Assembly: GCA_022562935.1 (NCBI GenBank)
Contig: JADFOI010000004.1
Coordinates: forward strand, 1 to 54,232
Reading direction: 5' to 3'
DNA from: Acidobacteriota bacterium
GTDB taxonomy: Bacteria > Acidobacteriota > UBA6911 > RPQK01 > JADFOI01
DNA length: 54,232 bases
Shown piece after piece: positions 912 through 47,679 of this stretch. The first letter of the stretch is position 1. Each line of letters begins with the position of its first letter. Below the pieces are notes generated by a model. The model had not been told where the DNA came from. It saw only the letters and a list, made by a program, of their open reading frames with translations, and did no database searches. The translations under genes and the position numbers were made by a program.

Positions 912-1574
912 GTCATCGCCGAAGGGGCCGACGGCTGCAAGCTGCATCGAAGCATCCCCATGGAAAAGGCCATGAACAATATAGTCATCGCCTACGCTCA
1001 AAACGGTGAGGCCATTCGCCCGGAGCAGGGATACCCTTTGCGTCTGGTCGTGCCCGGATGGGAAGGAAACACCCACGTCAAATGGCTGCGCCGCATCAAG
1101 GCCGTGGATCAACCTTATATGGGGCGGGAGGAAACCTCCAAGTACACGGATCTGATGCCCGATGGCAAGGCAAGGCAATTTACCTTCGTGATGGAGGCCA
1201 AGTCGGTGATCACCTTTCCCTCGGGAAGAGACAAACTCCCTGGCCCGGGATTCTATGAAATCACGGGACTGGCCTGGTCAGGTCGTGGCTTGATCGAATC
1301 GGTTGAGGTCTCGATCGACGGAGGTCAGTCCTGGCAGGAAGCTCAGTTCCAGGAGCCACGCCACCCCGTCGCCTTGACCCGTTTCAGGCTTCCCTGGCGA
1401 TGGGAAGGACAGGAAGTAACCCTCCGGTCGCGATGCACCGACGAAACGGGCTACGTTCAGCCCAGCCGCGAAGCGCTGATCGAGGCTCGTGGCCTGAACA
1501 CGAGATATCACTACAATGGCATCACGGCTTGGAAAGTCTCATCCGACGGCAGCGTTCAGAATGCCTATGCTTAG
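912..1574 (+). CDS. soxC: SoxC-like sulfite oxidase-family molybdoenzyme, C-terminal part (5'-truncated)
   Basis: Motifs VIAEGADG..RSIPMEKAM, YAQNGEAIRPEQGYPLRLVVPGWEGNTHVKWLRRI and GLAWSGRG. The ORF sequence upstream of ~910 (804-910) is unrelated high-GC DNA. Confidence 0.85.
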   Translation, partial: VIAEGADGCKLHRSIPMEKAMNNIVIAYAQNGEAIRPEQGYPLRLVVPGWEGNTHVKWLRRIKAVDQPYMGREETSKYTDLMPDGKARQFTFVMEAKSVITFPSGRDKLPGPGFYEITGLAWSGRGLIESVEVSIDGGQSWQEAQFQEPRHPVALTRFRLPWRWEGQEVTLRSRCTDETGYVQPSREALIEARGLNTRYHYNGITAWKVSSDGSVQNAYA

Positions 1575-1754
1575 CCCGGATTATGCATAAATTCTCTACT
1601 GCAGCGACGAAATCATCCACCATGACTACGTTCCGCTCGGTCGGCCTCCTCAACGTACTGCAGGGAGTACGTTTGCGGTGGCCTCCTGTCGCGTGCCTGG
1701 TCATGGCGGCGCCTTCGTCGCTTCGTGACAAGAACCTATGCATACTCCGGGCAA
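1571..1754 (+). repeat. MITE-like palindromic element, family 1 (copy A)
   Basis: Ends are TTAGCCCGGATTATGCATA and TATGCATACTCCGGGC. It shares core words TCTACTGCA, CCTCCTCAACGTAC..GTACGTTTGCGG and GCTTCGTGAC with the other copies. Confidence 0.85.
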
Positions 1755-1768
1755 TTCTCGCAGGGTGG

Positions 1769-2305
1769 ATGCTGGCCGCGATTGTGGCCGCATCTCCACT
1801 GATGGGGCAGTCACCCAACTATGGAGTGGGTCGATCACCCACTCCTGAGGAGATCAAGAGCTGGGACATCAGTATTGGTCCGGATGGGAAGGAACTCCCG
1901 CCTGGAGAGGGTAGGGCAATCGAAGGAAAGGAAGTCTATACCCGTCGCTGTGCGGACTGCCACGGCTCAAAAGGTCAGGGTGGTGCTCAGGGAGAAGCCC
2001 TGGTGGGTGGAGAGGGGACCTTGGACAGTACCCAACCGGTGAAGACGGTGGGCAGCTACTGGCCCTATGCTACGACGCTTTGGGACTACATCAATCGCGC
2101 CATGCCCTTTGACAGCCCCGGATCTCTGACCCACAAACAGGTCTATGCCCTTGTCGCCTACCTTCTCTATCTCAACGGCATCATCGAGGAAGAGGAAGTA
2201 CTCAATGCCCAGACCCTGCCCCAGGTCCGGATGCCCAATCGAGAAGGCTTTGTTCCCGATCCGCGGCCCGATGTGGGAACGAAGGATCAGAGCCAGATGC
2301 ATTGA
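1769..2305 (+). CDS. SoxD-like monoheme cytochrome c; start uncertain (1583 or 1769; original start probably 1567)
   Basis: CADCH heme motif; WDISIGPDG..LPPGEG; KTVGSYWPYATTLWDYINRAMPF; directly follows soxC. Confidence 0.85.
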   Translation: MLAAIVAASPLMGQSPNYGVGRSPTPEEIKSWDISIGPDGKELPPGEGRAIEGKEVYTRRCADCHGSKGQGGAQGEALVGGEGTLDSTQPVKTVGSYWPYATTLWDYINRAMPFDSPGSLTHKQVYALVAYLLYLNGIIEEEEVLNAQTLPQVRMPNREGFVPDPRPDVGTKDQSQMH

Positions 2306-2311
2306 TTTTGG

Positions 2312-4759
2312 TCAGCGGCCCACGATCTTGCGAATCGTCCTCTCATCCAAGGCGGGTGTTCGAACCGGATCGTTTCCCTGAACCACCGCCAAGACAGCAC
2401 TGTCCGTAAACAACTCCTTGATATCGGAAGGAATCCCGTCGGCTGCCAATTCACTTCCGATCCGTTCCACCATCTCCGGGTGATCGGTCAAATAGTCAGC
2501 CAGAAGGGGCCACCTCAACTCCATGAGGGTCCACAACGCCAAGGGCCCTGTTTCCATATCGCTGCCCTCCAGAAGAGCGATCGCCTTTCGGAACGTATAA
2601 GCGTTGATAAATCTCTTCATGGAACGAGGGTTGGGATCCAGCAAATCGACGAAGGGGTGCAAAAGATGCTCGCTCTTCTTGCCGGCAGCAGGTTTCATGA
2701 TTCGCTTGGCAGCGACACCCAGCAAGGCCTGCTGAACCAGAAGGTCGCCTCTATAGTCGTGAACCTTAAACAAGATCTTCTCTTCGTCGCTCTCCCTACC
2801 CAGGATCTTCTCGGCTTCCTTTTCCGCACGGCGAAGCTCAGTTTCTACTTTTTTCGGGCTCTTGGAGGCCTTCATTTCTGTGAGCCGATCCCAGTATCGC
2901 CTCTGGGTGGCAACGGGCATCCTGGGCACCGGAACTGAGATTTGGAACATCTTCTCAAGGAACAGATGGGAAAGAGGATGTCCCGCCTGGCCGATCGATC
3001 CGTTGAATTCTCCATAGGATTGTTCATAACTGGCTCGCAGCCATTTCCGGTCTGCGGCAACCACGAAGACGACTTTGGACTCATGAAAGAAGGTCTGAAT
3101 TTCCTGCAGGAGCTCGACCACATAGCTCCCTTCGCAGCGGTCCAGATCGTCGATAAAGACGGCACAGGGCTGACAAGCGCCTTGGACCATTTTCTTGAAA
3201 TGCCGAACAATCATGGGCACGGAATCCCGGTGATGCTCCATAAAGATCCTGGCCGAGCGACTGGATCCCATGAGCCAAAAGCGACTGAACAGGACACCCG
3301 CGCCCCAGAGTGTCATCAATCCGGCCAGGGTCCTGAGTAGGGTCTCAACATTCCCCTCCAGGTCCGCTTCGGTCATGAACCAGATGCCCCAGAGAATCAG
3401 GGCCCCTGTTAGAATCTGAAAAGCCCGACCGGCCTGGAAACGCCACCAGCGGTCACGGATCACCAGCCGCAGGGCACGAAAGAAGCTGATCTTTCTGAGT
3501 GCGCGGAACCTTTGCCGGTAGACAGCGTTGAGCAAAGCCCACCAGGGAGGACCCATCCCCTGATAGCGCCAGGCGTTGAAGTCAACCACCATCCACTTTT
3601 GCCCCAGTCCACCGGATACAAGCTCCTGGCGCAAGAAGTTGAGCAGCGAGGTTTTTCCCGAACCCCAGGGGCCGTGGATCAATACTCCAAAGGCCTCTCC
3701 AGGCATCTCTTCCGTCCTGGGAGAGGCGGTCCATTGGTTCTTCTTGGGCCTGGCCCAAACCTCATGGATTCGCTCCGCTAGGATCTGGGCAAAGGGTCTG
3801 CTTCCCAATTCATCAATCTCCGTCGGATGATCCGAATGGGTGGGAACCAGGTCGGTGGGAGTCCCCTGGAAGGTCTCCGGAACTATGGGTTTTGCTGCCT
3901 TCCCCGTGTCGGGAGTCTCGGCAAAGGGCTCCTCTTCCATGCTCGGTTGCGGTACTACCGGTTCTGGTTCAGTAGCAGGGGGCTCTTCCAGAGTCAGTAC
4001 CGGTTCCAGGTTCTCGGCAACGGCTTGCTCTTGTGGGATCTCTTCCCGTTCAAGGGTGGCAACGGCTGACCGCTCCGGTGCTGTGAATGCCGGTTCCAGG
4101 GTTTGGTCAGCGGAGGGCTCCAGTGTTGCAGTCTCTTCAGAGGTTTCGGTGGCCGACTGCTCCTGGTCCCCGACCGGTTCGTCCCCGGTGTCCGCCGGTG
4201 CAATGGTCTCCTGCGGGGATGGTTCGTGCTGGGCATCCCCATCCAGGACGGCTGAACTCAACTGTTGCGGGGTCAGATTTGACGCATCCGCCAGCAGGGT
4301 CCCCGTCAAATCCGCTCCACTGAGAGTCGCTTCCATCAGGTTGGTCCCTTTGAACATCGCCTCTCTTATCTTGGCCTGAGTCAGGTCGGCTCCATTCAGG
4401 TTGGCCTCACTGAGGTCCGTCTCATTGAGCATGGCCTGGCTCAGATTGGCTCCCTGGAGGTTCGCTCCCATGAGCTTCGCTCCCGTGAGGTTGGCCTTCG
4501 TGAGATTGGCTTCGCTCAGGTCTGCCTCGCAGAAGTTCACTCCCATAAAGTTTCCCTGGCTCAGGTCGGCTCCTTTTAGATTGGCGCCCATGAGATTCGC
4601 TTCGCTCAGGTCCGCCCCGCTCAGATTGGCGTCTCGGAGATCCATCTTCATGAGCTCCGCCTGGTAGAGGTTGGGACACTCATCAGGATGTTTCTTCCTC
4701 CATTTATTCCAGGCCTTCCTACCTTTCTGTAGGATCTTCAGATGTTCCGGTTTGGCCAT
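2312..4759 (-). CDS. Pentapeptide-repeat / KAP-family P-loop NTPase fusion
   Basis: N-terminal A(N/D)LxxA pentapeptide repeats, then an acidic Pro/Glu linker. Walker A GPWGSGKTS, FNAW motif, two TM helices inside the NTPase, Walker B VFIDDLDRC, FLEKMFQ and NPRSMKRFIN follow. Confidence 0.9.
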   Translation of the reverse strand: MAKPEHLKILQKGRKAWNKWRKKHPDECPNLYQAELMKMDLRDANLSGADLSEANLMGANLKGADLSQGNFMGVNFCEADLSEANLTKANLTGAKLMGANLQGANLSQAMLNETDLSEANLNGADLTQAKIREAMFKGTNLMEATLSGADLTGTLLADASNLTPQQLSSAVLDGDAQHEPSPQETIAPADTGDEPVGDQEQSATETSEETATLEPSADQTLEPAFTAPERSAVATLEREEIPQEQAVAENLEPVLTLEEPPATEPEPVVPQPSMEEEPFAETPDTGKAAKPIVPETFQGTPTDLVPTHSDHPTEIDELGSRPFAQILAERIHEVWARPKKNQWTASPRTEEMPGEAFGVLIHGPWGSGKTSLLNFLRQELVSGGLGQKWMVVDFNAWRYQGMGPPWWALLNAVYRQRFRALRKISFFRALRLVIRDRWWRFQAGRAFQILTGALILWGIWFMTEADLEGNVETLLRTLAGLMTLWGAGVLFSRFWLMGSSRSARIFMEHHRDSVPMIVRHFKKMVQGACQPCAVFIDDLDRCEGSYVVELLQEIQTFFHESKVVFVVAADRKWLRASYEQSYGEFNGSIGQAGHPLSHLFLEKMFQISVPVPRMPVATQRRYWDRLTEMKASKSPKKVETELRRAEKEAEKILGRESDEEKILFKVHDYRGDLLVQQALLGVAAKRIMKPAAGKKSEHLLHPFVDLLDPNPRSMKRFINAYTFRKAIALLEGSDMETGPLALWTLMELRWPLLADYLTDHPEMVERIGSELAADGIPSDIKELFTDSAVLAVVQGNDPVRTPALDERTIRKIVGR

Positions 4760-4887
4760 TTTGTTGAACCTTTCAAGCTCACGACTGGGGCAACACATCC
4801 TGCCAGCCAAGGGAGAGCAACTCTCTCAGTGCTAAGTTCTCATTTCAGTGTCCTCTATCTGAGGAAAGCCTTTCAACCTAGGGCGCC

Positions 4888-4916
4888 TTGCTGGCCTTCA
4901 CCTTCCCCGCTATAAT
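4888..4916 (+). promoter_or_regulatory. sigma70-type promoter for the DinB-family gene
   Basis: TTGCTG-17 bp-TATAAT upstream of a gene with a GGAGG ribosome-binding site. Confidence 0.55.
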
Positions 4917-4983
4917 CCTCAAATTAGAAGAAAAGAAAGAGTCCCCGAATGGACTTTCCTATTAACCCGTTGGAGGAGAATAA

Positions 4984-6735: not shown

Positions 6736-6973
6736 CCAGCCCGTACTTCTCACACCTACTCGTCACGAAGCGGGCGCGCCCGGCGGAAGGGCCGCCCTGA
6801 GTGCGTTGCGCCACGCGCGAGGGCACCCGTTTGCGGGTCGGCCCCCGCAAACGTACTGTATGGTACGTTGAGGAGGCCGGGGGTACCCGCTTGCGGGTCG
6901 TGCAACACAGTCGGTGCAGCACGCCGGATCATTGCGCCGATGCAGTAGAGGGGGTGTGAGAAATGCGGGCTAG
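6736..6973 (-). repeat. MITE-like element, family 1 (copy B)
   Basis: Ends are CCAGCCCGTACTTCTCACACC and GGTGTGAGAAATGCGGGCTAG; nearly identical to 13408-13635. Confidence 0.9.
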
Positions 6974-7865: not shown

Positions 7866-7929
7866 CTAGCCCGGGTTATTCATAGGTCTTTGCTGCTGCA
7901 GTAGAGAATTTTTGAATACTCCCGGCTCG
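7866..7929 (-). repeat. Internally deleted family-1 element (copy C)
   Basis: CTAGCCCGGGTTATTCATAGG...TGCAGTAGAGAATTTTTGAATACTCCCGGCT retains both ends and the TCTACTGCA word. Confidence 0.75.
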
Positions 7930-10760: not shown

Positions 10761-10988
10761 TTAGCCCGCATTTCTCACACCCGTTCTACTGCATCGGCGA
10801 AATGATCCGGCGTGCTGCACCGACTGCGTTTCGCGACCCGCAAGCGGGTGCCCCCGGCCTCCTCAGCGTACCATACAGTACGCTTGCGGGGGTCTCCGTC
10901 GCGCGTGGCGCAACGCACTCAGGTCAGCCCTTCCGCCGCTTCGTGACGAATAGGTGTGAGAAGTGCGGGCTTGCCCGGGTTATGCATA
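10761..10988 (+). repeat. MITE-like element, family 1 (copy D), plus an abutting extra end
   Basis: TTAGCCCGCATTTCTCACACC ... GGTGTGAGAAGTGCGGGCTTG (to 10973), immediately followed by CCCGGGTTATGCATA, an end of the other subtype. Confidence 0.9.
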
Positions 10989-13407: not shown

Positions 13408-13635
13408 CTAGCCCGTACTTCTCACACCTTCTCGTTACGAAGCGGCGGAAGGGCCGGCCTGAGTGCGTTGCGCCACGCGCGAGGGCACCCGTTTGCGGGT
13501 CGGCCCCCGCAACCGTACTGTATGGTACGGTGAGGAGGCCGACGGTACCCGCTTGCGGGTCGTGCAACACAGTCGGTGCAGCACGCCGGATCATTGCGCC
13601 GATGCAGTAGAGGGGGTGTGAGAAATGCGGACTAG
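13408..13635 (-). repeat. MITE-like element, family 1 (copy E)
   Basis: CTAG at both ends; near-identical to copy B. Confidence 0.9.
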
Positions 13636-13782: not shown

Positions 13783-13905
13783 CAAGTCCTCATTCCTCAC
13801 ACCTGATCGTAGCGAGGCGGCGGAGACGGTTGAGGATACAAGGCGCGGGTCGCGAAACGCCGTAGACGCAGCCGCAGTAGATTGGGTGTGAGGAATGCGG
13901 ATTAG
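13783..13905 (-). repeat. Short divergent family-1 element (copy F)
   Basis: Inverted repeats AGTCCTCATTCCTCACACC and GGTGTGAGGAATGCGGATT; core words GCAGTAGA and GCGGGTCGCGAAACGC. Confidence 0.7.
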
Positions 13906-15460: not shown

Positions 15461-15605
15461 TTAGTACTCACTTTCATAAATTTGGTAACTTTTGTTGGGG
15501 CGCGACGGAGCCCAGATCGAGGCGCGACGCCTCCTCCTCTGTTCGCGACCTCGCCTCGCAAGCCCCATCCGCAAACGTTACCATATTTATGAAAGTGAGT
15601 ACTGG
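15461..15605 (-). repeat. MITE-like element, family 2 (copy G)
   Basis: 27-bp terminal IR AGTACTCACTTTCATAAAT(T/A)TGGTAAC with one mismatch. Core ACGTTTGCnGATGGGGCTTGCGAGG is shared with 33181 and 36361-36462. Confidence 0.85.
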
Positions 15606-15744: not shown

Positions 15745-15774
15745 CCAGCCCGGATGACGCATAATCCGGGATAG
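15745..15774. repeat. Minimal (ends-only) family-1 element
   Basis: CCAGCCCGGATGACGCATAATCCGGGATAG: two fused terminal IRs with no core. Confidence 0.65.
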
Positions 15775-28316: not shown

Positions 28317-28500
28317 CTAGCCCGGACTATGCATAGATTCTCTACTGCAGCGACGAAATCATCCGGCGTGCTGCACCGCCTGCGTGACCCGCAGCAGGTG
28401 CCCCCGACCCGCAAAGCGGGTGTCCCCGCGCGTGGCGCAACGCACCCAGATCGGCGCTTTCGTCGCTTCGTGACAAGAACCTGTGCATAGTCCGGGCTTG
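28317..28500 (+). repeat. MITE-like element, family 1 (copy J)
   Basis: CTAGCCCGGACTATGCATAG ... CTGTGCATAGTCCGGGCTTG with the family core. Confidence 0.9.
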
Positions 28501-28536: not shown

Positions 28537-29769
28537 ATGCCAGATAACATGATCACCTTTCACCGGGTTAAAGAGTTTTTCGGCCTGCAAAAGAGCATGG
28601 TCGGGCTTTTGGCGATGGTGGTGCTGGTGGGGATGGGCGAGAAAATGGGGGAGCGGTTTCTCCCCATTTACCTGATCACCCTGGGGGGTGGTGCTCTTTC
28701 CGTTGGGCTGCTCAGCGGCATGGACAATCTGTTGTCGGCTCTCTATTCCTTCCCCGGAGGATACCTGGCCGACCGGCTGGGCACCAAACGGGCGCTGCTG
28801 GTTTTCAACCTTATTGCCATGGTGGGATTTGTCGTGGTCATCCTGATTCCTGCCTGGCAGGCGGTCATCGTGGGATCCGTCTTCTTTTTGAGCTGGACGG
28901 CCATTTCGCTGCCGGCAACGATGGGACTGGTTGCCCAAGTGCTTCCCAAAAACAGACGCACCATGGGAGTCACCATGCACTCTCTGGTGCGCCGCTTCCC
29001 GATGGCCCTGGGTCCGCTCGTGGGTGGAGTCTGCATCGACATCTGGGGCCGTGTGAACGGCATCCGTATTGCTTTCATCGGGGCCCTGGCCATGGCCGTG
29101 GTCGCTGCTATCGTGCAGCAGATCCTGATTAAAGAGGATGCCAGGGACCAAGAGGCTCAAGCCACAAAATCACAAGCCGAGAAAAACCCCTTCCGACTGC
29201 TCCGGGAAATGACCCCCAAGCTGCGCAATCTGCTCATCTCCGATATCCTCATCCGTTTTTGCGAGCAGATTCCTTACGCTTTCGTGGTCCTATGGTGCAT
29301 GGAGGTCATAACCATGCCTGTGACCGGCCTGCAGTTTGGTCTTCTGACCACGGTGGAAATGGCAACCGCCCTCTTGATCTATATACCGGTCGCCTACCTT
29401 GCCGATCGAGGCCACAAAAAGCCCTTCGTCCAGATGACCTTCGTGTTCTTTACCCTGTTTCCCCTGGTGCTCTTGTTCTGCCATTCCTTCTGGCCACTGG
29501 CGGGAGCATTCGTTCTTCGTGGGCTCAAGGAGTTTGGCGAACCCACTCGCAAGGCACTCATCATGGACCTGGCTCCGGAGAACCGTAAAGCCGGAATGTT
29601 CGGGCTCTATTATCTGCTGCGGGACGTGGTTGTTTCAGTGGCAGCCTTTGGCGGAGCCTATCTTTGGATCATTGGTCCTGCAGTGAACCTGTGGGTGGCT
29701 TTTGGCTTCGGCGTGCTGGGCACTTGCTGGTTCACCTGGAAGGGCCAAGACCTGTCTGACCTCCCCTAG
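28537..29769 (+). CDS. MFS transporter
   Basis: Motif A GGYLADRLGTKR, repeated as YLADRGHKK; about 12 hydrophobic segments. Confidence 0.92.
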   Translation: MPDNMITFHRVKEFFGLQKSMVGLLAMVVLVGMGEKMGERFLPIYLITLGGGALSVGLLSGMDNLLSALYSFPGGYLADRLGTKRALLVFNLIAMVGFVVVILIPAWQAVIVGSVFFLSWTAISLPATMGLVAQVLPKNRRTMGVTMHSLVRRFPMALGPLVGGVCIDIWGRVNGIRIAFIGALAMAVVAAIVQQILIKEDARDQEAQATKSQAEKNPFRLLREMTPKLRNLLISDILIRFCEQIPYAFVVLWCMEVITMPVTGLQFGLLTTVEMATALLIYIPVAYLADRGHKKPFVQMTFVFFTLFPLVLLFCHSFWPLAGAFVLRGLKEFGEPTRKALIMDLAPENRKAGMFGLYYLLRDVVVSVAAFGGAYLWIIGPAVNLWVAFGFGVLGTCWFTWKGQDLSDLP

Positions 29770-29941
29770 CCAGGGTTATGCATAAATTGTCTACTGCAGT
29801 GCCGCAATCATCCGGCGTGCTGCACCGACTGCGCGACCCGCAAGCGGGTACCCCCGACCCGCAAGCGGGTGCCCTCGCACGCCTGGTCATCGTAGCGCCT
29901 GCGCCACTTCGTTACGAAAACCTACGCATAATCCCGGCTGC
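29766..29941 (+). repeat. MITE-like element, family 1 (copy K)
   Basis: CTAGCCAGGGTTATGCATA ... TACGCATAATCCCGGCTG; the left TAG is the MFS stop codon. Confidence 0.88.
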
Positions 29942-29999
29942 ACCCCGTAATCGCCGTCACCAACTCAGAGGTACACCCGGCAGTAGAATCAACATCGAG

Positions 30000-32315: not shown

Positions 32316-32345
32316 CTAGGCCGGATTATACATCATCCGGGCTAG
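32316..32345. repeat. Minimal (ends-only) family-1 element
   Basis: CTAGGCCGGATTATACATCATCCGGGCTAG; the right CTA is the stop codon of the SPOR gene. Confidence 0.7.
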
Positions 32346-33180: not shown

Positions 33181-33414
33181 CTAGTGTCTCGTCCCATGAA
33201 TACCATGACGTTTGCTGATGGGGCTTGCGAGGAAAGATCAAGGAGCGAGGAGGAGGTGATGCAGGGACATCGACGACGACAAGCGACGCAGAGATCGCCC
33301 GCAACCCCCATCAGCCCGAAGGGTGGCGGCGGGACAGCGTCGATTTCTATGTGGCGAACTCGACGCCGTCGCACTCGCCACAACCGTCATGGTATTCATG
33401 GGACGAGACACTCA
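33181..33414 (+). repeat. MITE-like element, family 2 (copy H)
   Basis: Perfect 28-bp terminal IR AGTGTCTCGTCCCATGAATACCATGACG. Confidence 0.9.
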
Positions 33415-33450
33415 CCTTGTCAGTACCCAATAGTAAGATCTATAAATCCT

Positions 33451-35115
33451 ATGGCAGAAGGAGTTCAACCGAGGAAGGCTCACACGGTTGCGATCGCCAG
33501 CGGAAAGGGTGGCGTTGGCAAGACGGTCATTACCGCCAATCTCTCTCTCAGCCTGGCCCAACAGTTCGGCACAAGAAACCGCCCTGTTGTCGCCATTGAT
33601 CTCGATTTAGGCTGCGGAAACCTGAATTCCTGTCTCGGTGTCCGTTCCCCTAATGGGACAATCAACAGCTTCCTTTCCAGGAAGGTACCCTCCCTTCGGC
33701 ACCTCCTGACTCCGACCCCACAGAAGCACTTGCACATGATCTGTTCTTCCTACAGTGGTTCGCCCGAGATGGCCCTCACCGACAGTTTAAAAAAGAAACT
33801 CTTGGATGAAGCCAGCGGCCTTGAAGCAAGTTGGGTTTTGATGGACCTGGGAGCCGGGACTTCGGGGGATGTCTTGGATCTGTTTTTGGGAGCCACCGAA
33901 AAAATCATCGTCATCACGCCTGAAGCACTTTCTCTTCACAACGCCTTCCTTTTCCTGAAAACATTGATTCTTCACTATCTCTGGCGTGAACTGGGCAAAG
34001 AAAGCCTCCTCTCCTCGGTGAAACCCACCTGGCAGAAACTGATCGATGATCGACAGGGCATCAGCATTCCCGAGCTGATCGATGGCATTAGGGATTGGGA
34101 CCGCTACGCAGCCTATGTTTTGACGGGTCTGATCGACGATCTCAAAATTAAGTTCCTGGTTAACCAGTACCGAGGAAGCTCAGAAAACTCACATCTCAAG
34201 AATTTCCATCACCTTCTGTTTAAATACCTGTGTGTGCGGACCAACATCAGCTACCTCGGCTTTGTGTACTTCGACGAAGGAGTCCGAAAGTCGGTCCAGG
34301 CAATCAAGCCCTTCTTGCTGGACTGCCCGGAAAATCAGGCAGCCCAAGATCTCAGGGAGTTGGCTAAGCGTCTGGCCGAAGATGAAGAGATGGATACCAC
34401 CCCTCCTTTGCACCTTCCCGAAGAAACCGAGTCTTTCTCGTCCGAACACCCGCAGGATTCGGTGGTCAATGGTTTTGTGGGGTGGGCTGGGGATCCGGTT
34501 CAACAGCCGGAAAATGGCAGAGGGACCGAAGTCACCGATCTGGCTGAGGATCCGGCCGAGGAAGAACAGCTAGATGCCACCACCCCTTTGCGTGTCCATG
34601 AAGAAGTGGGGCCGCTTTCGACCGAACTCTCCTCGGGTGGGGTAAGCGGGGATCTCATCGAGCTCGCTAAGAACCTTGATCAGAAACTGCATAACGGCGC
34701 AAGCATTGAAACTACGCCCTTGGCTGAGAGTCTGAGACCGACGGATCATCCTGGCTCAGAGACCGAAATCTCCGGCCTGGCTGAGGGTCAGGGTCGGCGA
34801 AATGGCGAAGGTATCGAAGTCACCGACCTGGCTGAAGATCTGATCCAGGAAGAAGAGCTGGATACCTCCTCTCCTTTGCACTTCCATGAAGAAGTGGGGC
34901 CACTTTCGAGCGATCTCCCTTCAGATCAGACCGACACCAATATCACCCCTGTGACGGAGCCATTGAAAGAAGAGGCCTCGGCCTCCTACCTTTCGGAAGA
35001 TTTGGCGGCCCAAGATATCCTGGAGTTGGCGAAGCACATGGCGGAGACACAAGAAAGCTCAGTCGAAGACATCCTGGCATTGGCCGAGCGCCTGGCCAGA
35101 AAAGAGGCTTCCTAG
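33451..35115 (+). CDS. MinD/FlhG-like ATPase with an acidic repetitive C-terminal tail
   Basis: Deviant Walker A SGKGGVGKT, DLDLGCGNL and MDLGAG; C-terminal duplicated acidic segments. The ORF-track extension to 33184 lies in repeat H. Confidence 0.85.
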   Translation: MAEGVQPRKAHTVAIASGKGGVGKTVITANLSLSLAQQFGTRNRPVVAIDLDLGCGNLNSCLGVRSPNGTINSFLSRKVPSLRHLLTPTPQKHLHMICSSYSGSPEMALTDSLKKKLLDEASGLEASWVLMDLGAGTSGDVLDLFLGATEKIIVITPEALSLHNAFLFLKTLILHYLWRELGKESLLSSVKPTWQKLIDDRQGISIPELIDGIRDWDRYAAYVLTGLIDDLKIKFLVNQYRGSSENSHLKNFHHLLFKYLCVRTNISYLGFVYFDEGVRKSVQAIKPFLLDCPENQAAQDLRELAKRLAEDEEMDTTPPLHLPEETESFSSEHPQDSVVNGFVGWAGDPVQQPENGRGTEVTDLAEDPAEEEQLDATTPLRVHEEVGPLSTELSSGGVSGDLIELAKNLDQKLHNGASIETTPLAESLRPTDHPGSETEISGLAEGQGRRNGEGIEVTDLAEDLIQEEELDTSSPLHFHEEVGPLSSDLPSDQTDTNITPVTEPLKEEASASYLSEDLAAQDILELAKHMAETQESSVEDILALAERLARKEAS

Positions 35116-35137: not shown

Positions 35138-36418
35138 TTACGGCTCATAGGGAATAATCCAGGTATCCCGTACCAGCCTCGGGAACCTCCTGCGCAGGTT
35201 CGACCCTAACTCTCTCGCTTCCTCCCGAGTGGGAAACTGCCCTACGCGAACTCGAAAGTAAGAAACGGATTCTGTCCTATCGGGCTCGAAAATATTGGCT
35301 GTATACCCCTCGTTTTGCAGTACGGCCAGCAACTCTTCGGCTTGCAGGCGTGTTCGGAAAGCCGCGATTTGCACGGTAAATTCCACAGTTTCACTCCCAG
35401 GAAAACCAGGCTGGTCTGTCGTTACGTGTTCAATAAGGAGTGGTGACCGCTCGACGGGAACCATAGGAGAGTCGATGTCGATGTCCATCACCTTCTCCGG
35501 GGTGGGCAACAATGGCTCCGGCGGCTCGGAGGGCTCCCGGGGCTCCTCCAATTCCTCATACTCTCCCGTCCTCCTTTTGAGGAGGCGGAGCTCGCTCAAA
35601 GCCTGAGCGACTTGAGGATGGTCCGCTCCCAACTTCTTTTCCCCGATCAATAAGGCACGTTCATAGAGTCGGACCGCCTCCTCGTATTCACCGGTCATAT
35701 TGTGCAGCCTGCCCAGTTCAGTAAGGGTTCGAGCGAGCTCGATGTGCTCCGGTCCCAAAGCGTTCTCTCGAATAGCCAGCGACCTTTCGAAATGCTTCCG
35801 TGCCTGTGCATAGTCCCCTGTGTCTCGAAACAATGTTCCAAGCCGCTCAAGTGCCGGGGTCACCTCTACATGATCGGCTCCCAAGGTTTCTTCGCGGATG
35901 GCGAGAGCCTCTCGGCTCAGAAGGAGGGCTTCTGTATATTGACGCTGAGTGCCATAGAGAAAGGACAACTCGAGGAGACCTTCGACCATCTCCAAACGGC
36001 TCTCATCCCCAGCATTTTTCATGATCGTAAGTGCCTTCTCCAGCAGCGGCTGAGCTTGCTCATAGAGACCGAGAGAGCTGTAGATCCGACCCAAGGTTTG
36101 CATCATCTGAGCCCGCATGAGGGGTTGATCGGGTAGTTCCCGCTCGATTGTCTCCACGCCCCTATCGAGGATCTCCCTTGCCGTGATCGTGTTTCCCCGG
36201 TCCTCGCTGGGATCTGGCACCTCAAACAGACTGACCAGAAAATCCGACATCTGACGGGCATCTTCGACCTTCTGGCGGATCACTCGTTCCGATTGAACCG
36301 CCCGAATCAGTCCGATGCTCGTCCCGGCAATCCCAATGAAGAGGGCCAAAACCACTAAAACCCCTGCCTTCACCTCGCCTCTGCTCCCTTCGCCTTGCTC
36401 CTTGATCTCCCCTCGCAA
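35138..36418 (-). CDS. TM-TPR-SPOR protein, probably 5'-truncated
   Basis: TM, then FLVSLFEVPDP..ITAREILDRG..QP..RA..TLG.IY.SLGLYEQA, then kinesin-light-chain-type TPRs (LGADH/LGPEH) and a C-terminal SPOR. The first ~19 codons come from a repeat. Confidence 0.8.
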   Translation of the reverse strand: MRGEIKEQGEGSRGEVKAGVLVVLALFIGIAGTSIGLIRAVQSERVIRQKVEDARQMSDFLVSLFEVPDPSEDRGNTITAREILDRGVETIERELPDQPLMRAQMMQTLGRIYSSLGLYEQAQPLLEKALTIMKNAGDESRLEMVEGLLELSFLYGTQRQYTEALLLSREALAIREETLGADHVEVTPALERLGTLFRDTGDYAQARKHFERSLAIRENALGPEHIELARTLTELGRLHNMTGEYEEAVRLYERALLIGEKKLGADHPQVAQALSELRLLKRRTGEYEELEEPREPSEPPEPLLPTPEKVMDIDIDSPMVPVERSPLLIEHVTTDQPGFPGSETVEFTVQIAAFRTRLQAEELLAVLQNEGYTANIFEPDRTESVSYFRVRVGQFPTREEARELGSNLRRRFPRLVRDTWIIPYEP

Positions 36419-36462
36419 GCCCCATCAGCAAACGTCATGGTATTCATGGGACGAGACACTAG
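36361..36462 (-). repeat. Truncated family-2 element (copy I, one end only)
   Basis: 36411-36462 is the exact reverse complement of 33181-33232 (52 bp). Confidence 0.9.
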
Positions 36463-37594: not shown

Positions 37595-40500
37595 AGTGGG
37601 CAGTCTGCATATACCATTCGTGCACGAGCCGAGAGATTTCCTCAATCGACAGCACACCCTGTGCCACCCAACTCTCTACGGGCGGGATAGCGGCCATCAC
37701 GATTTCATCCTCGCTCAGAATAGGGCGCTTGTCGATTAAGCCACTCTTCACGAGACGATTCTCCAACTCTTCCACGTCAACCTCTGTGAGATGCTGAGTC
37801 CGGCTGTCTCGGCCTTCGCGAAGCACGGAAAGAAGCCGCCGAATGTCACCCTTCATCTCCTCAAACAGGAAATTCAGGCTTTTGAGGTTAGGATCACTCC
37901 TACCCGCAGCTGCCCAAACACTCGCATTATTCTTCTGATGCCGACCGATCCTCCAGTTCTGTGAGAAGGCTTTCATCAAATCGATGCGGGCTCTGAGACG
38001 CTCCACTCTGTGCTCACTGATGATCCTGTGCCCACCCCCATCAACCAGGGATTGCCACTGCCCAACCGTTTCCGCAGATACCTTAAGCAGGGCATACAAA
38101 GTCCCTAAATCATCACGTAGAAGGTAAAACAGATGAACGCTGGTAACGGAATTTCTGAAATCCAGGGAAGGAACCTGTAACAAAGCACCATATTTATCTG
38201 CGGAGCGTCCTTCCGGAGAAGGAACCTCGCGCACAGCCGGACCCGTGACTTTCTTGATCGGGGAGCTCGTTTTGGCCATACCTCGAATTTGCCCGAGATC
38301 GATGGGGGCCTCCTGCTCCACCCCCATTTTCATCAAGGTTTGACTCCAACGGACCGCATCGGACGGATTAGCCGTTAAATAAACAATCTGCCGTTCTTGC
38401 TCGGCTGCCAGGACATGGAGGCTCTCGACAATGGCCTGGAATCGGGATGGATCTGAGGTGCTCAGAACATCATCCAAAAAGATGGGCAATTTGATGCCTC
38501 GTTCGATTTGACCGGCAAAGGCCAGCCGTACCGCCAACAGAAGCTGGATTCGCGTGCCATCGGAAAGCTCTGAAAGACCTTTTCCAATTTGGCTGAAAAC
38601 CTCGAATACCCGAAAACTGGGAGAGTCGGATCTCTCATCCACAATGAGGTTGTATTTGTGGTGGGTGAATTTGGCAAAAAGTTCTGCTGCACACCTCAGG
38701 ACCTTTGGACAACTCTGTTTGTCATGCCTGGCACGCACTCGTTCCAAGAGAAACTTTCCGGCCACTTTGTGAAGGTTTTCCTGACGTCGCTCTTCCAGCA
38801 GTTGTTCCCCCTCGGAAAGGTCAGCCAGGGCTTGGTCCAAACTGTCCTTCTTCCCAGCTTGGCGGATACTGGCTTGAATACCGCCGATCTCTCCCATCAC
38901 ATCCCCGAGCTTCGCCACGGATCGCTCACAACTCCTGACACGACTATCCGCTTCATTGAAGGTTAGCTCAAGGAGATCCTGACGGCTTTTCAGCTTCTTC
39001 TCGTACTCCCGGATGTTCTGCTCGCGGTGGTTGCCCTCGTTCACCAGATTTCGATATTCATCCAGCCAATCCAAATACTGATAGAGGGCTCCTTGATCGC
39101 CGACTGGAAGCCCCGTCTGGTTCCAAAACCTTCTGATTCGCTCCTCTTGTTTCCCGATTCTGGCCTCCACTTCATCGTGCCGTACCCATTCCCTCTCAAG
39201 GATCTGTGTGGCGTTCTCAAACCGGGCACTCCTCACCTTCAAGTCTTCAAGTCGCCCCCGGGCGACAGCCGCATCCTGCACATCCGGCTCACCTTGACGC
39301 TTGAAGAAGGCAGTCAAATCCTCCAAACCCTCCTGGACCATCTCTTCCAGTCGACTCAGCTGGGCCTCCAACCCGGCAAGTCTTTCACGAGCCTCTTCCC
39401 ATTTGAGAATCCGATTGGCAAACAGGAACAGTTGTAGATCACCGCCCGGATCGACTTGTAATTGCAAGCACAGGTTCGCTCTCTTCTCATCCACCTGCAG
39501 TTCTTTTTGTGCAAGGCTCTCTTCGCGGGCCTTGAGCTCATCCAACAGAGTCCTCCGTCGTTCCAGCTCTACGGCCTCTTTCCACTTCTCTTCCAGCTCT
39601 TTCAGAGAACTGTCCACCGACTCCAGAGACCAGTCGAAAATAGGTTTGAGACGCAGCTTGTCGTACTGCCTTTGGCACTGTCGCGCGGCAAGGTCTCTAT
39701 TGCGCTCAAACAGGAAGATGACCCCCAGCATACCGATTCCCACACCGGCCAGGACAAACCCCGACCAATGGGCAAACCAACCCAGGTCCAACCCAAGAAA
39801 GAGGGCTATCACCCCCAGCCAGGAAAGGTTTCTGATGACCTTGTGCCCTGTAGAGTAGGCTTTTCTGGCCCGCCAGTTTCGAAGAGCCTCCATACCCCAC
39901 TCCAGAGTCGCCTTGGATTTGCCCTTCTGTCCCTCTTGCCAATAATTTCGATCCGTGTCGATTCGAATCCGCTCCTGGCGAACCGCTTCCGTCTCGCGCA
40001 AGAAGCCCTCCAAATCGCCCAAAAGTTCCCGGTCCAAAGGGGTCAGACCTTGAGGAGCGTGTTCTGGAGCAAGATGCTCGATACTTCCCGCTAAAGCTCC
40101 CTGGGCAACCGTGACCTCGTCTCGTTTCTCCTCGACTTTGATCTCCACTCTTTGCAAGCTGCCTGCCCGCTCGAGCCAGGTGCTCAGCTCGCCATCTCCA
40201 ATCGGGCCATGAGGCAATCGGCAAGATTGGATGACCCTCCGCGCCGCCTGAATGGCCTTTTCGCAGTCGGGCAACTGGGAACGGAACTGGGCGTCATCCG
40301 TCTTGAGTGCCTCCAGATCCCTTTTCTCATGACCTTGAAGTTGGCCCATTTCTTTAGGGAATTCTGCAAGTGCTGCCCTGATCTGGCGCAGATGCTGTCG
40401 TTCCTTCGCCAGATCTCGAGCCGTCTTCAAGAAATCCAGCTCCGCCTGCGACGCGTGAACTCTGTCTCGCTCTGCATAGACTGCGGGAAGGCGATCCTCC

Positions 40501-43217: not shown

Positions 43218-46200
43218 CTATTGGCCGTTCACGACATCACGGGCGGCCTGCCGAACCCGAGAGTCGTCGTCTTCGACGTGGCGGGCCAGTACTTCGGCTA
43301 CTCGAGGATTGGATATTTGGGCCAAAGCGAAAGCGGCGGTGGCACGGACCAGAGGACTCCTTTTTTTGAGGAACGAGAAAAAGCCTTGCGGGGCTAAGAT
43401 CTGAGCCAGTGGTTCAATACTGGCGGGGTCGGCTATTTGTCCGAGTGCCCGGCAGGAGGCAATGACGCGCTTCTCGTCCTTGGCGGATTCGAGCAGGGAA
43501 ACAAGCACCTCCGCGGCTCCGGTAGGCTTGATTTTACCCAGGGACTTAATAGCCACCGTCGCTACAGTCGGGTCTTCGTGGCTGGTACGATCGACCAAAA
43601 GTGATGTAAGACGTTCGTCGTTCGAACGTTCTATGAGACGAAGTGCAGCTCGCCGTACTTTAGGGCTTTCGTCCTCTAGAGCGTAATCCAGCTCTTTTTT
43701 CAGATCTCGGGTGAACTTGTCGATGACCTCCAGTATTCTCACGCGCTGCTGGGCAGAGCCCTCCAACACCAGTTCACGTTTCAAAAGGGTGATCGGCTCT
43801 TCCCCGAGCTCGCTAAGCAAACGGGAAGCAATTTGTCTCGCCTCAAGGTTATCTTCCTCTTTGATGACGTCAATAAGCAGGGGAGTGGCCACGGGTCCTA
43901 GACTGCCGAGCAGTTGGGTGGCCTCTTGCAGCCGGGTGGGTTCCTTGGATCTTAGATTCTCCGAAAGTACCCGCTGAAATTCAGGCTCCAGTTCACGAAT
44001 GAAGACCAGCGGGGTCCCTTCTCCTCTTTCCTGCAGTTGTCGCTGGCGCTTGCCGAGATGGGTGAGGGTTCGGCTGGCCCGCCTGTAGTCCCCAAAGTGG
44101 ATGAGGCTGGTCGCGGTTCGGTAAAGCAATGTGCCCATTTCTTCGAGAAGTTGAGGGTCCTCCTCTTCCGCCAAAGCAAGGAGAAGGGGATCTATCAGAA
44201 GTTCCACTAACTGAGGCTGAGAGGCAAGACCCAAATCTTTCAGCAAACTGCCACAAACAAGGATGACCTTGGTGCGGATCGTCGGGGTCTGGAGTGCAAA
44301 GTCCTGAAACAATTGTTGGATGATCTGTCCAGACTGCTCTTCATCTCCCTTGAGAAAGAGATCGCGCAGCCTCGTTTCTGCGGATTGCAAGAAAGCGTCA
44401 GTGAACTGTCCTGTTTCGGGTTCTACAATCGCCGGTCCTGATGGGCCTGCAGCTGCAGAAGGTCGGATCTGCCCAGGTTCTAAAACTGCCTCGGTGGCAG
44501 TCTCCTCCGAGGTCTCTTCCTGGCCTGTCCCAGTACCAAACGTCTTCTCCAGGATTCCATAGGTGCGCTGGTCAAAGAGGATTCCGGTTAGCCCATGTAC
44601 CCTGGCTAATCGATGCCAAACCTCACCATCGAATCCATCGACCGGAGGTTCACGGAGTGCCGCAATAAAGATTCTCAGTTCTTGAGTGGAGACGTGTTTC
44701 AGAAAGGACAGACTTCTGAGTCCTATTGCTTCCAAGAGGCGGAGAAAACCATCAGCGATGGCCTTGAAATCCTTGGTATCCACCTTTTGTCCGTTGACCA
44801 AAAGAACCTCCTGGACCCGCGCCAAGGTGAGGGCGGACCGTTTCACCAGAAGGGTTTGAAGAACTGCCTGCAGCTCTTCAATGGAGTCGGTGATCACCTG
44901 GCTCTCTGGAGGGTAGAGCTTGATATTGGTCGAGGTGGTCAGCAGACTGCGGACGAGGCTGGGAATCTGGGTCAAATCCTGCTCATCCAGCCCTCGATCA
45001 GCGGCACGCAAGCTGGCAAACCCGCCCCCGGGTAAAGATGAGGCCGCCTCCTGCAAGGTCCCGGCGATTGCAAGCTTTCCGTCCGACCTCACCATGGCGG
45101 TATAGCGTACCTGTTCGAGTGCGATGTTTTGGAGGTGGTGTTTCGCTACAAAACGCTGCCAGAAACGCCGATCGATCATTTTCGTGCTGACCTGATCCAA
45201 GGATTCCAACATCACCCTCAGCTCGTTTCCGGTGAGACCTCGAGAAAAGACAATGCCCTGCAAGGAGAGACGACTCATGAGAATAGCCAAAGCCTCGGCA
45301 ACGGATTTGAATTCGGAGACGTCCAAGGGTTCCCCGTTCACGGACAGAACCTTTTTGGACTGAGTGATATTGAGGCGGTCATTGTGATCCAGGATCTTGT
45401 CAATGGATTCCTTAAACTGTCCGGCAGCACTGACAATGGCCGGGCTTCCGGATGGGTAGAGCTTGATCTTACGAAGGGTTGTCAACAGCCCACGAATCAC
45501 CTCTGGAACATGGACCAGGGCGGCGGGATTCAAGGGGACGTCCTGAGGGCCATCATCGGACAACCTTCCTCCGGTGTAGTCTATGGCTTCTTCCGCATTG
45601 AATATTTTCTGATCGTAGGCCTGTTGCGAGTCACGGTAAAAACGAGCTTTTTCCTGGTTAGCCGAGAGCTGGAAATGGTAGGCAAGGGTGGCAGCCGAAA
45701 GGAGGAGACGCTGGGCATTACGGGTTTCTTGGTACTTCCCGACACGCTCGTGCAGTTCCTCCTTTCGCTTGTCCTGGATTGCACCGTAGGTGATGTCCAA
45801 AATTCGTCTGCTCAAGAAACGAATGGTTTCATCATTCATCTGGTACTGTGACCCAATCAGACCCTGAGCCACAGCCTGGTCGATAAATTCCGTGACCTGC
45901 GTCTCCTTCGTTTCGGAACTTCCGGCCAGCATGCTCAGGGAGACATGTTCCCCAAAAGTGGAGGCTTGGTCGAGTAATTCCCTGCTCTCTTTGTTGAGGA
46001 CGGCGATCTTGTGGCTGACGATTTCCTCCAGGGATCTGGGCAGATAGTCTTTCTCCAAAGGTTCGATGCTCCACACTTGGCCGGTGAGAGTGATCTTTCC
46101 GCCCAGGATCAGCTTACGCATGATCTCACTGACAAAGAGAGGATTCCCCTCAGTGATCTGGGCCAGTTGCTCCTCAAAACCCTTCGGCAAACGCATCTGA

Positions 46201-47501
46201 GGAAAAACCCGCTGAAAATGCTGTCCGATGTCGGTGGCCGACAGAGGGGTGAGGGATATCCTATCGATGTTCAGTTCCTGATGGTGTGCGGCAAAGAAGC
46301 GCTCAAGTGGTATTGGCTGTATATGAGTTCCGGCCAGCCGCATCGGCATGGCAGCCCCACAGATAAAAAGCGGAATGTCCTGACGTATGAGCAGCCTTCG
46401 CAGTAAGAGAAGTGTGGCCTCATCACTGAAGTGAACATCATCGATAAGGAGAATAAGGGGGTGGGAATCGAGAAGCCTGAGAATCATATGGATCAACGTG
46501 GCAAAAAGTGCATTACGCTGAGTCTTTGGATCTTCTGGCTCAAAACGAGCGCTGGGTTCCGCCAACTGCGGCAAAACGTAAGACAAGTAACTGAGTTCCT
46601 TAGGAGTCAGCTCATTCAGGACTTCAATGCCCTTGTCGGGACGCTGATTCATCATCTCAACGAGGATATTGGTGGTCAGGTAGTAGGGACGAAAACCCTC
46701 CTGGGGAACCCCGTTTACCTTGATAGCGACCCTGTCGCTCGCAGAGAAGTTCAGCCCCAGGACTTTTAAGAACTCGCTCTTACCCATCCCCCCGGCACCC
46801 TCGATGATAAGAAATCGGTTTTTACCTTGACTGAAGTCCCCCAAAGCCTCTTTCACCCTTTCGTGTTGAGTCTCACGGCCTGAGTCGTTGACTCCATCCA
46901 GTCGATGGACCGCTGTCTTCGGAAATACCTCTTGGGGGGAAACTTGCCCGGCGTCGATAAGGAGCGCCCGCCCAGACTTCTTGGCGAAGTACAGCGCAGT
47001 ATCTGCTGTCTGGATGAGGGCGTTGCCCGTCTGGACATCGGCAGGAGCCGAGGCCACCCCTATACTGAGCGTGATCGGGAGTTGGCCAACGATTTCGTCC
47101 AACTGGAGGGGTTCGTCCTTGATCCGCTGGAGTATTTGTTGGCCAACTTCCAGTGCCGCTCGCTTATCGGCACCAGGCATGAGAACTATAAACTCATCGC
47201 CTCCGTAGCGAACCGCCAGGCCATTCACTCCAGCCACTGCTTTGATCAGCTTGGCCACCCAAACAAGGACCTGATCGCCAACACTATGACCGTAGGTGTC
47301 GTTGATTTGCTTCAAAGAATCCACATCCATCATAAGCAACGACACCGGTTCTCTCTCCAGAGAGTCCCACTGGACCTTGTGTTGTAAGTATCTGCGAAGA
47401 AAACGGCGGTTGTAGATGCCGCTGAGCTCGTCTTCAAAGATCAGGCGAGAGGGATCCGTGTTCACGTGCTCCAGAAAATAGAGGAGATCCTGATATTCCA
47501 T
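43218..47501 (-). CDS. Diguanylate cyclase (GGDEF) - STAND-like AAA ATPase - two 'LYP' modules - HEAT repeats
   Basis: DELSGIYNRR, DVDSLKQINDTYGH and RYGGDEF; Walker A GAGGMGKS, Walker B LLIDDVH and TEGNPLF; C-terminal HEAT repeats (DESPKVRRAA, ALGQI.DP, DDDSRVRQAA). Confidence 0.9.
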   Translation of the reverse strand: MEYQDLLYFLEHVNTDPSRLIFEDELSGIYNRRFLRRYLQHKVQWDSLEREPVSLLMMDVDSLKQINDTYGHSVGDQVLVWVAKLIKAVAGVNGLAVRYGGDEFIVLMPGADKRAALEVGQQILQRIKDEPLQLDEIVGQLPITLSIGVASAPADVQTGNALIQTADTALYFAKKSGRALLIDAGQVSPQEVFPKTAVHRLDGVNDSGRETQHERVKEALGDFSQGKNRFLIIEGAGGMGKSEFLKVLGLNFSASDRVAIKVNGVPQEGFRPYYLTTNILVEMMNQRPDKGIEVLNELTPKELSYLSYVLPQLAEPSARFEPEDPKTQRNALFATLIHMILRLLDSHPLILLIDDVHFSDEATLLLLRRLLIRQDIPLFICGAAMPMRLAGTHIQPIPLERFFAAHHQELNIDRISLTPLSATDIGQHFQRVFPQMRLPKGFEEQLAQITEGNPLFVSEIMRKLILGGKITLTGQVWSIEPLEKDYLPRSLEEIVSHKIAVLNKESRELLDQASTFGEHVSLSMLAGSSETKETQVTEFIDQAVAQGLIGSQYQMNDETIRFLSRRILDITYGAIQDKRKEELHERVGKYQETRNAQRLLLSAATLAYHFQLSANQEKARFYRDSQQAYDQKIFNAEEAIDYTGGRLSDDGPQDVPLNPAALVHVPEVIRGLLTTLRKIKLYPSGSPAIVSAAGQFKESIDKILDHNDRLNITQSKKVLSVNGEPLDVSEFKSVAEALAILMSRLSLQGIVFSRGLTGNELRVMLESLDQVSTKMIDRRFWQRFVAKHHLQNIALEQVRYTAMVRSDGKLAIAGTLQEAASSLPGGGFASLRAADRGLDEQDLTQIPSLVRSLLTTSTNIKLYPPESQVITDSIEELQAVLQTLLVKRSALTLARVQEVLLVNGQKVDTKDFKAIADGFLRLLEAIGLRSLSFLKHVSTQELRIFIAALREPPVDGFDGEVWHRLARVHGLTGILFDQRTYGILEKTFGTGTGQEETSEETATEAVLEPGQIRPSAAAGPSGPAIVEPETGQFTDAFLQSAETRLRDLFLKGDEEQSGQIIQQLFQDFALQTPTIRTKVILVCGSLLKDLGLASQPQLVELLIDPLLLALAEEEDPQLLEEMGTLLYRTATSLIHFGDYRRASRTLTHLGKRQRQLQERGEGTPLVFIRELEPEFQRVLSENLRSKEPTRLQEATQLLGSLGPVATPLLIDVIKEEDNLEARQIASRLLSELGEEPITLLKRELVLEGSAQQRVRILEVIDKFTRDLKKELDYALEDESPKVRRAALRLIERSNDERLTSLLVDRTSHEDPTVATVAIKSLGKIKPTGAAEVLVSLLESAKDEKRVIASCRALGQIADPASIEPLAQILAPQGFFSFLKKRSPLVRATAAFALAQISNPRVAEVLARHVEDDDSRVRQAARDVVNGQ

Positions 47502-47513
47502 ACTGATCAGACT

Positions 47514-47679
47514 TTAACCCGGATTATGCATAAATTCTCTACTGCACCAACGAAATCATCCGGCCTGCTGCACCGCCCGTGCGACCCGCAAGCGGGTGCC
47601 TCTGTCGCGCGTCGCGAAACGCCGTCAGGTCGTCGTTCTCGTCGCTTCGTGACAAGAACCTATACATGAGCCGGGCTAG
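47514..47679 (+). repeat. MITE-like element, family 1 (copy L)
   Basis: TTAACCCGGATTATGCATA ... TATACATGAGCCGGGCTAG with the family core. Confidence 0.88.

Follow-up and report, generated by a model that had tools for sequence, protein, structure and literature searches.

Palindromic repeats with a shared core and exchangeable ends in a marine-sediment acidobacterium: probable miniature elements of IS1380-family transposases

A stretch of 54,232 nucleotides from an Acidobacteriota bacterium (contig JADFOI010000004.1 of assembly GCA_022562935.1; hereafter the window) is dotted with palindromic elements that have a core in common, while the stems closing this core come in largely different versions. 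Such an arrangement raises the question of what kind of element keeps its middle and exchanges its ends, and of what moves it. An earlier note, made from the letters of the window alone, listed nine copies and proposed a non-autonomous or structured-RNA element class whose mobility or function depends on a folded single strand of DNA or RNA. Comparison of the repeats with insertion sequences (IS) of the same and of related genomes leads us to a different mechanism: the repeats are very probably short, non-coding MITEs (miniature inverted-repeat transposable elements), moved in trans by DDE transposases of the IS1380 family.

The family itself is real and extends beyond the window. All nine listed copies (A to I in Table 1) are present as family members, a repeat grouping of the window places them in families D2-D9, and core words named in the earlier note occur there far above expectation (ATCCGGCGTGCTGCACCG with 6 matches against 0.01 expected, GACCCGCAAGCGGG with 9 against 0.52). 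The gain and loss of modules, likewise described before, is seen in a 63-copy alignment (A2; 8 window copies and 55 others), which also underlies the segment identities given below. An nhmmer profile built from seven window copies was run at E<=1e-3 over the whole assembly of the genome (G000; 3,440,378 bases, 89% complete), of which the window is contig C166. It matches seven of the nine listed copies (A, B, D, E, G, H and I) with E values from 1e-40 to 2e-66, and yields 216 hits, or 184 non-overlapping matches after merging of both-strand and overlapping hits; 55 of the 184 cover the full model span, and together they occupy 20,970 bases, i.e. 0.61% of the assembly. Copy C lies below detection by this profile and was identified by eye only. 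Two members of the window absent from the earlier list are collapsed forms of 22 nucleotides (nt), at 15749 and 32320. Elements with paired ends are 61-294 nt long and non-coding, and open reading frames (ORFs) that overlap copies vanish once the elements are masked. The idea of a structured-RNA class found no counterpart among the curated models of Rfam, with no match at gathering score in the whole window and none at E<=1 for copy D; that of a non-autonomous family, in which neither an Rfam match nor a transposase occurs within the window, is borne out.

The absence of a cognate transposase holds for the window and not for the genome. Contigs C114 and C158 each carry a long element of 1645 bp, whose ends are identical to those of type-1 MITEs over about 20 nt. 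The two copies differ at 70 positions, and each has one intact ORF of 464 amino acids, whose product matches Pfam PF13701 (DDE_Tnp_1_4) at E 9.9e-144 and the NCBIfam equivalog NF033539, 'IS1380 family transposase', with 381 bits against a cut-off of 180. Members of the IS1380 family are about 1.6-2 kb long, with one ORF, ends beginning with CC and direct repeats of 4-5 bp; the element found here, 1645 bp long with one ORF, ends CCCGG...CCGGG and CTAG on both sides, agrees with this description. In the complete genome of a sister species (G003), this protein has 35 matches, of which about 30 are nearly full-length and 72-73% identical. Nineteen of the loci were examined at fixed offsets and seven were in register: CTAG stands directly before CCCGGATTATTCATAAATTCT in all seven, and the right flank is CTAG in six and TTAG in one. 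Among these IS ends a TATTCATA variant occurs, which recurs in window copy C.

The type-2 stem leads to a second lineage of the same family. Here, CCCGCATTTCTCACAC directly adjoins IS1380-type transposase genes in two genomes of the same taxonomic family (G011:C86 and G008:C152), the products of which are 36-40% identical to the type-1 protein. A fragment of the G011 protein, used in an order-wide search, matches 35 of 76 genomes at E<=1e-30. Of 24 loci from other families of the order, in which ends were sought at up to 4 mismatches, six (L174, L177, L180, L183, L185 and L186) enclose the gene between two inverted type-2-like ends at a distance of 1.7-1.76 kb; their flanks are mostly CTAG, with TTAG on both sides of L185. 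Seven of the remaining loci have one end, and eleven have no end or chance-like hits only. To judge by these comparisons, stem types 1 and 2 are the terminal inverted repeats (TIRs) of two IS1380 lineages.

What exactly is exchanged can be stated more narrowly than before. The two closing stems of the earlier note exist as the main types, to which a third type (GCCGGG...CCCGGC) and the TATTCATA variant have to be added. The swapping of self-complementary ends around a shared core is likewise confirmed, with the correction that the outermost CTAG and CCCG are common to all types, so that the exchanged part is a 16-nt subterminal cassette on each arm. Cassettes of types 1 and 2 are 0.36 (left) and 0.45 (right) identical, against 0.82-0.87 within a type. 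Outside the cassettes all segments, including the outer CTAG and CCCG, are as alike between types as within them; for example, identity of the left loop word is 0.92 between types 1 and 2 and 0.90-0.95 within a type, and that of the core segments 0.52-0.53 and 0.52-0.62, respectively. End words, sought across the genome with up to 3 mismatches allowed, occur 236 times; 147 belong to type 1, 48 to type 3 and 41 to type 2, and they form 68 inward-facing neighbouring pairs, two of which are the 1645-bp elements. The same type occupies both arms in 61 of 67 oriented paired-end elements and six are mixed; another three are made up of two left arms placed head to head. The mixed forms show that ends get exchanged by recombination in the shared core, and their rarity fits a need for two ends that suit one transposase. 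In a tree of the core columns, type-2 copies are split over three places, once next to a type-1 subgroup, and type 2 requires 3 changes, of which well-supported branches force only 1; repeated end swapping is suggested by this pattern. In the same tree copy F belongs to a clade of four with support 100 and copy H groups with type-3 copies; copies B and E are 97% identical over 193 nt. One core that bears the end cassettes of two transposase lineages is a tidy and uncommon feature.

The elements, with their TIRs of about 20 nt beginning with CCCG, are flanked by CTAG, a word that is depleted five-fold in the genome (observed/expected 0.21; 2,794-2,798 sites by two counting methods). A share of about 8% of these sites (227 of 2,794) abuts an element-like end. 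The depletion of CTAG exceeds that of every other palindromic tetranucleotide counted. CTAG is the preferred target. Among 51 paired elements of the genome the left flank is CTAG in 20 and TTAG in 10, the right flank CTAG in 20 and CTAA in 9, and the two are identical in 6, always as CTAG; among 91 elements of other genomes the left flank is TTAG in 26 and CTAG in 25 and the right flank CTAG in 40, with 15 identical pairs, 3 of them other than CTAG. The target duplication is probably 4 bp: a palindromic target with decayed, unequal flanks makes duplications of 2 and 4 bp inseparable, and the few non-palindromic flanks that are identical on both sides (L185, two collapsed forms and the three elements from other genomes) favour the longer one.

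Relatives of the genome preserve an empty site. The flanks of copy G are 17-69 nt apart in four sister genomes (G001, G004, G005 and G006), against about 215 nt with the element; in the alignment the 184-nt copy is missing from them, and a single ATAG stands at the site in G004. The site thus shows an insertion polymorphism between sister species. A joint that skips copy H (29763 to 29941) was considered as a further empty site and rejected, as unknown letters lie between its sides and it is not clean. At the copy H site (window 29700-29990, compared with L160, G004:C252:1741-2740) the sister genomes G001, G004 and G006 hold about 915 bp, which in G004 include an ORF of 255 amino acids, a right-arm remnant and bordering direct repeats of about 27 nt; G001 and G006 were assessed by their match coordinates only. 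Read from its sequence, the ORF is a candidate S-adenosylmethionine-dependent methyltransferase. Gene content differs between G000 and the sister genomes at this site.

Copies also collapse and decay. Contigs of the sequencing runs X1, X3 and X15, with near-perfect matches to the flanks, contain an allele of copy G from which the inner 154 nt are deleted with a 7-nt overlap, leaving a perfect palindrome of 22 nt. The genome has 38 such collapsed forms, two of them in the window, whereas none occurs in any of 20 controls with scrambled patterns. Since TATGCATA is its own reverse complement, it forms a direct repeat with one copy on each arm, where the hairpin has its base. Deletion between these copies, promoted by folding of the DNA into the hairpin, would give the 22-nt palindromes. 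Type-2 ends have no self-complementary word, and no collapsed equivalent of type 2 was found in the genome. The copies are mostly old, with a median nearest-neighbour identity of 0.80 and 2 of 63 at 0.95 or above.

Short and non-coding, with TIRs, ends shared with IS (types 1 and 2), many dispersed copies and an insertion polymorphism, the repeats have the properties of IS-derived MITEs, and constitute a new family of this known class. In the mechanism that we propose, IS1380-family DDE transposases would move the elements in trans, and only elements whose two ends fit one transposase would multiply, which would keep the cassettes matched. Hybrids would arise by recombination in the shared core and stay rare, and the whole element would form an imperfect hairpin.

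Table 1. Members of the repeat family in the window, with the parts of copy G, and the two type-1 IS copies on other contigs of the genome.
Feature	Position	Strand	Ends and flanks	nhmmer E	Remarks
Copy A	1571..1755	+	type 1; TTAG, CCCGGATTATGCATA...TATGCATACTCCGGG, CAAT	3.9e-41	first TAG is the stop codon of ORF 804..1574
Copy B	6736..6973	-	type 2; CCCGCATTTCTCACACC...GGTGTGAGAAGTACGGG	5.8e-65	longest module set
Copy C	7866..7929	-	TATTCATA-type; flanks CTAG/CTCG		56-nt short form; word ATTCTCTACTGCA kept
Copy D	10761..10973	+	type 2; flanks TTAG/CTTG	5.2e-63	
Copy E	13408..13635	-	type 2; flanks CTAG/CTAG	2e-66	
Copy F	13783..13905	-	type 2		divergent inner part (subgroup T2b); found by paired-end scan
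Copy G	28317..28500	+	type 1; flanks CTAG 28317-28320, CTTG 28497-28500		
Copy G, left TIR	28321-28340				
Copy G, left loop word	28341-28349				TCTACTGCA
Copy G, inner stem, left	28350-28358				GCGACGAAA; modular core follows
Copy G, inner stem, right	28458-28466				TTTCGTCGC; modular core precedes
Copy G, right loop word	28467-28475				TTCGTGACA
Copy G, right TIR	28476-28496				
Copy H	29766..29941	+	third end type (CCAGGG...CCCGG)	6.3e-42	CTAG provides the stop codon of ORF 28537..29769
Copy I	47514..47679	+	type 1; flanks TTAA/CTAG	1.1e-40	shortest module set
Collapsed form	15749..15770	.			22 nt; left and right type-1 TIR fused across self-complementary TATGCATA
Collapsed form	32320..32341	.	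CTAG on both sides		22 nt
Type-1 IS	C114:134-1778		CTAG, CCCGGATTATGCATAAA...TTTATGCATAATCCGGG, CTAG		1645 bp
Type-1 IS	C158:12407-14051		CTAG, CCCGGATTATGCATAAA...TTTATGCATAATCCGGG, CTAG		1645 bp

The co-variation of the two arms, from which the earlier note had argued for a fold, is genuine. On the gappy 63-copy alignment RNAalifold returned only 7 pairs, and pairs were then counted on a hand-written structure, in which 81.1% of cells pair, against 72.2 +/- 0.5% after shuffling and 27-38% when the partners are slid. Changes on both sides are seen in 169 cells; shuffles have 57 +/- 8, and none of 500 reaches 169. Much of this signal, though not all of it, is the cassette swap: the outer helix of 21 pairs, 82.7% paired over the 63 copies, consists of the TIRs, and the arms of each subfamily would co-vary in the cassette because both ends must fit one transposase. 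As it was stated, the dependence of mobility or function on a folded strand is not upheld, since the swap of stems needs no fold and the stems correspond to IS1380 ends. Between the outer and the inner stem lies an asymmetric internal loop, formed by TCTACTGCA in the left arm and CTTCGTGAC(A) in the right; the inner stem begins 30 nt in and is not present in the IS. Conserved loops between co-varying stems have the look expected of a functional fold and keep the idea alive as a possible but unproven one.

Several observations weigh against the movement of the elements by IS1380 transposases, at least as a complete account. The inner stem is not in the part that the elements share with the IS, and its co-variation is left unexplained by end recognition: pair 37-328 is AU in 17 copies, GC in 17 and CG in 15, and other pairs of this stem are CG in 39 and UA in 10 at one, and AU in 25, CG in 9 and GC in 4 at another. 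The apical stem comprises five perfectly complementary haplotypes in 22 of 34 module-bearing copies, with counts that are barely above those of shuffles (23 cells against 16.2 +/- 3.0; 7 of 500 shuffles as high). The best-conserved segment in all subfamilies is the internal loop word (0.90-0.95) and not the TIR, and the flanks of most copies are unequal (identical in 6 of 51 in this genome and 15 of 91 elsewhere). The genome (89% complete) has no type-2 transposase despite at least 11 type-2 copies, only two type-1 genes were matched in it, and no IS with the third end type was found. Similarly, G001, G002, G005 and G006 are without a type-1 transposase match, though each has at least 30 element matches; either their copies are orphans or the IS is missing from the assembly. 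Finally, transposition was not directly observed. The core might also be a self-standing hairpin module, with invariant asymmetric loops (TCTACTGCA/CTTCGTGAC) and co-varying stems, that has repeatedly exchanged its 16-nt cassettes for those of another IS1380 lineage; the MITE would thereby switch the transposase that it exploits, and a single-strand fold would be required for its mobilisation. The nesting of type-2 cores within type-1 diversity (at weak support) and the co-variation outside the IS-like ends speak for such a history, which we regard as conceivable though rather unlikely. We think it improbable that mobility depends on the folded single strand as such, with the loops being recognised, the stems merely structural and the likeness to IS ends secondary. 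Co-variation occurs in three separate helices, two of them outside the IS-like ends, TCTACTGCA is the most conserved segment throughout, and predicted RNA folds lie well below shuffles (ViennaRNA, 62 copies; mean z -5.6 for the plus and -6.2 for the minus strand, the latter folding better as RNA in 57 of 62 copies). The swapped cassettes, however, equal IS1380 terminal repeats, co-variation is mostly between subfamilies and so reflects few events, Rfam provides no match, and private changes within subfamilies comprise 3 compensated against 150 uncompensated ones, so that single copies decay without repair of pairing. In our reading, the complementarity belongs to a few multiplying source copies and not to copies kept in place. 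Wobble-type mismatches favour the minus strand (75:57 in G000; 106:33 in 91 copies of other genomes), but among rare variants the corresponding ratios in the two sets are 25:15 and 2:20. As these tests contradict each other, no conclusion on strand-specific, RNA-level selection was drawn.

Alternatively, the host might retain the repeats for regulation at the RNA level, in a role such as that of terminators, mRNA stabilisers or RNase III sites, which has been suggested for ERIC and Correia elements. Indeed, their predicted hairpins are long and stable, 75 of 80 scored copies lie between predicted genes, with five at contig edges and none inside a gene, and an element end is found within 5 nt of the gene at 18 of 59 adjoining 3' ends, overlapping the stop codon in 14 of these (in the window, at copies A and H). 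The overlap with stop codons, however, follows from a target that contains TAG. Moreover, the orientation of elements between same-direction genes shows no bias (24 co-oriented, 21 anti-oriented), neither promoter-like nor terminator-like sites were found inside copies G and H, copies decay in place, and four sister genomes do without copy G, all of which makes a regulatory role very improbable. We attach hardly any weight to a relationship with REP or REPIN palindromes, which would have the elements moved as single-stranded DNA hairpins by a Y1 transposase of the RAYT or IS200/IS605 type. Three Y1_Tnp (PF01797) matches above cut-off are present in the genome (C21:13413-13757, C21:31858-32172 and C128:1557-1892) and the 22-nt collapsed forms are REP-like in size, but no Y1 gene adjoins an element (on C21 the closest hit lies at 39320-39426, and C128 is without a hit), and long TIRs flanked by CTAG at either end, the same as in an IS1380-type IS, are unlike Y1 elements.

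The family is widespread among relatives. With one element as query, 18 of 31 related genomes (counting G000) were positive. The genus gave a match in all 6 of its other genomes and the family in 12 of 14 others; a few further families of the order are also represented. This tally and that of 35 of 76 genomes for the type-2 transposase include an unpublished genome, G017, on which no other result rests. An arm word of 21 nt occurs, as an exact match, in at least 116 stretches of a species-representative genome collection. Nearly all of the 80 matches listed are in metagenome-assembled genomes (MAGs) titled Acidobacteriota or Acidobacteria; the exceptions among them include three contigs (L079, L084 and L086) of one MAG titled 'uncultured bacterium'. 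Two further exceptions among the matches listed, both with the exact arm word, are L051, a contig under a Deltaproteobacteria MAG, and L062, under an uncultured Winogradskyella, which could reflect mis-binning or transfer. Sequencing runs that hold the present stretch are labelled as marine sediment metagenomes. Summed over assembled contigs only, the depth of the elements relative to the flanking gene is similar in the two kinds of run, at about 50-63 fold in DNA runs and about 28-74 fold in RNA-labelled runs.

Several known systems resemble the elements in part. Correia elements of Neisseria (CREE/NEMIS) are intergenic MITEs of 100-200 nt with inverted repeats of about 25 nt, a short TA-containing target, subtypes defined by end variants and internal deletion, and the potential to form long hairpins; to our knowledge, they have no autonomous partner. 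The present elements agree with them in size, intergenic place, TA-containing target, end and deletion subtypes and hairpin potential, but are unrelated in sequence, belong to another phylum, have an autonomous partner, and are without a promoter-like site (copies G and H). ERIC/IRU and BOX-type repeats of enterobacteria and pneumococci are imperfect palindromes with modules inserted or lost at fixed places, and we know of no demonstrated IS partner with identical ends for them. Modular imperfect palindromes are common to both, whereas the ends of the repeats studied here correspond to those of IS1380 elements. Likewise, the 22-nt collapsed palindromes are REP-sized and abundant (38 copies), as in REP, BIME and REPIN systems; unlike REP/RAYT, they derive from MITE ends by deletion, as in the copy G allele, with CTAG flanks, 21-nt TIRs and no adjacent Y1 transposase. 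A close parallel is with 'type I' MITEs, a term which in PMC3542288 stands for MITEs sharing the inverted repeats of a resident IS. The present elements are similarly short, non-coding, multicopy and intergenic, with short flanking repeats, and a resident 1645-bp IS with an IS1380-family DDE transposase has identical ends. They depart from this pattern in that one core bears the cassettes of two IS1380 lineages whose proteins are only about 40% identical, and in that the hairpin reaches far beyond the IS-like ends and co-varies there. The piggyBac transposons of eukaryotes have ends CCC...GGG and a TTAA target. Likewise, our elements start with CCC, end with GGG and sit in a palindromic, TA-centred tetranucleotide (CTAG); the target word and the bacterial host are different. 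IS1380 transposases are placed as the prokaryotic outgroup of piggyBac in PMC10813416. No description of this MITE family, of IS1380-derived MITEs or of CTAG targeting was found in the literature searched, which did not include ISfinder; PMC8841776 names MITEs in its reference list only, and PMC11602168 does not mention IS1380.

Two other kinds of repeats were noticed in the window. A second family, unrelated to the first, occurs at 15530-15591, 33381-33412 and 36387-36460, and has 71 sites in the genome. Its members end with ...AAACGTCATGGTATTCATGGGACGAGACAC, after which comes TA(G/A), and the inverted word GTGTCTCG stands at the start of small copies. By its looks this is a further MITE, with TA or TAG as its target, and several main-family copies directly abut it. 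In addition, three copies of a direct repeat of 123 nt, 61-80% alike and spaced 180 and 288 nt, lie at 34332-34922 inside ORF 33184..35115 and probably represent a repeated protein domain.

For annotation, the repeats are of practical concern, as they break assemblies and extend false ORFs, and they should be masked. The swap of cassettes on one core amounts to a natural experiment on the recognition of ends by a transposase, and a CTAG-specific relative of piggyBac, the TTAA-specific tool enzyme, could interest transposon engineers. For the uncultured Acidobacteriota lineage of marine sediments, the analysis defines a mobile-element system of two IS1380 lineages and a MITE family, which accounts for about 0.6% of the genome and provides neighbouring genes with stop codons.

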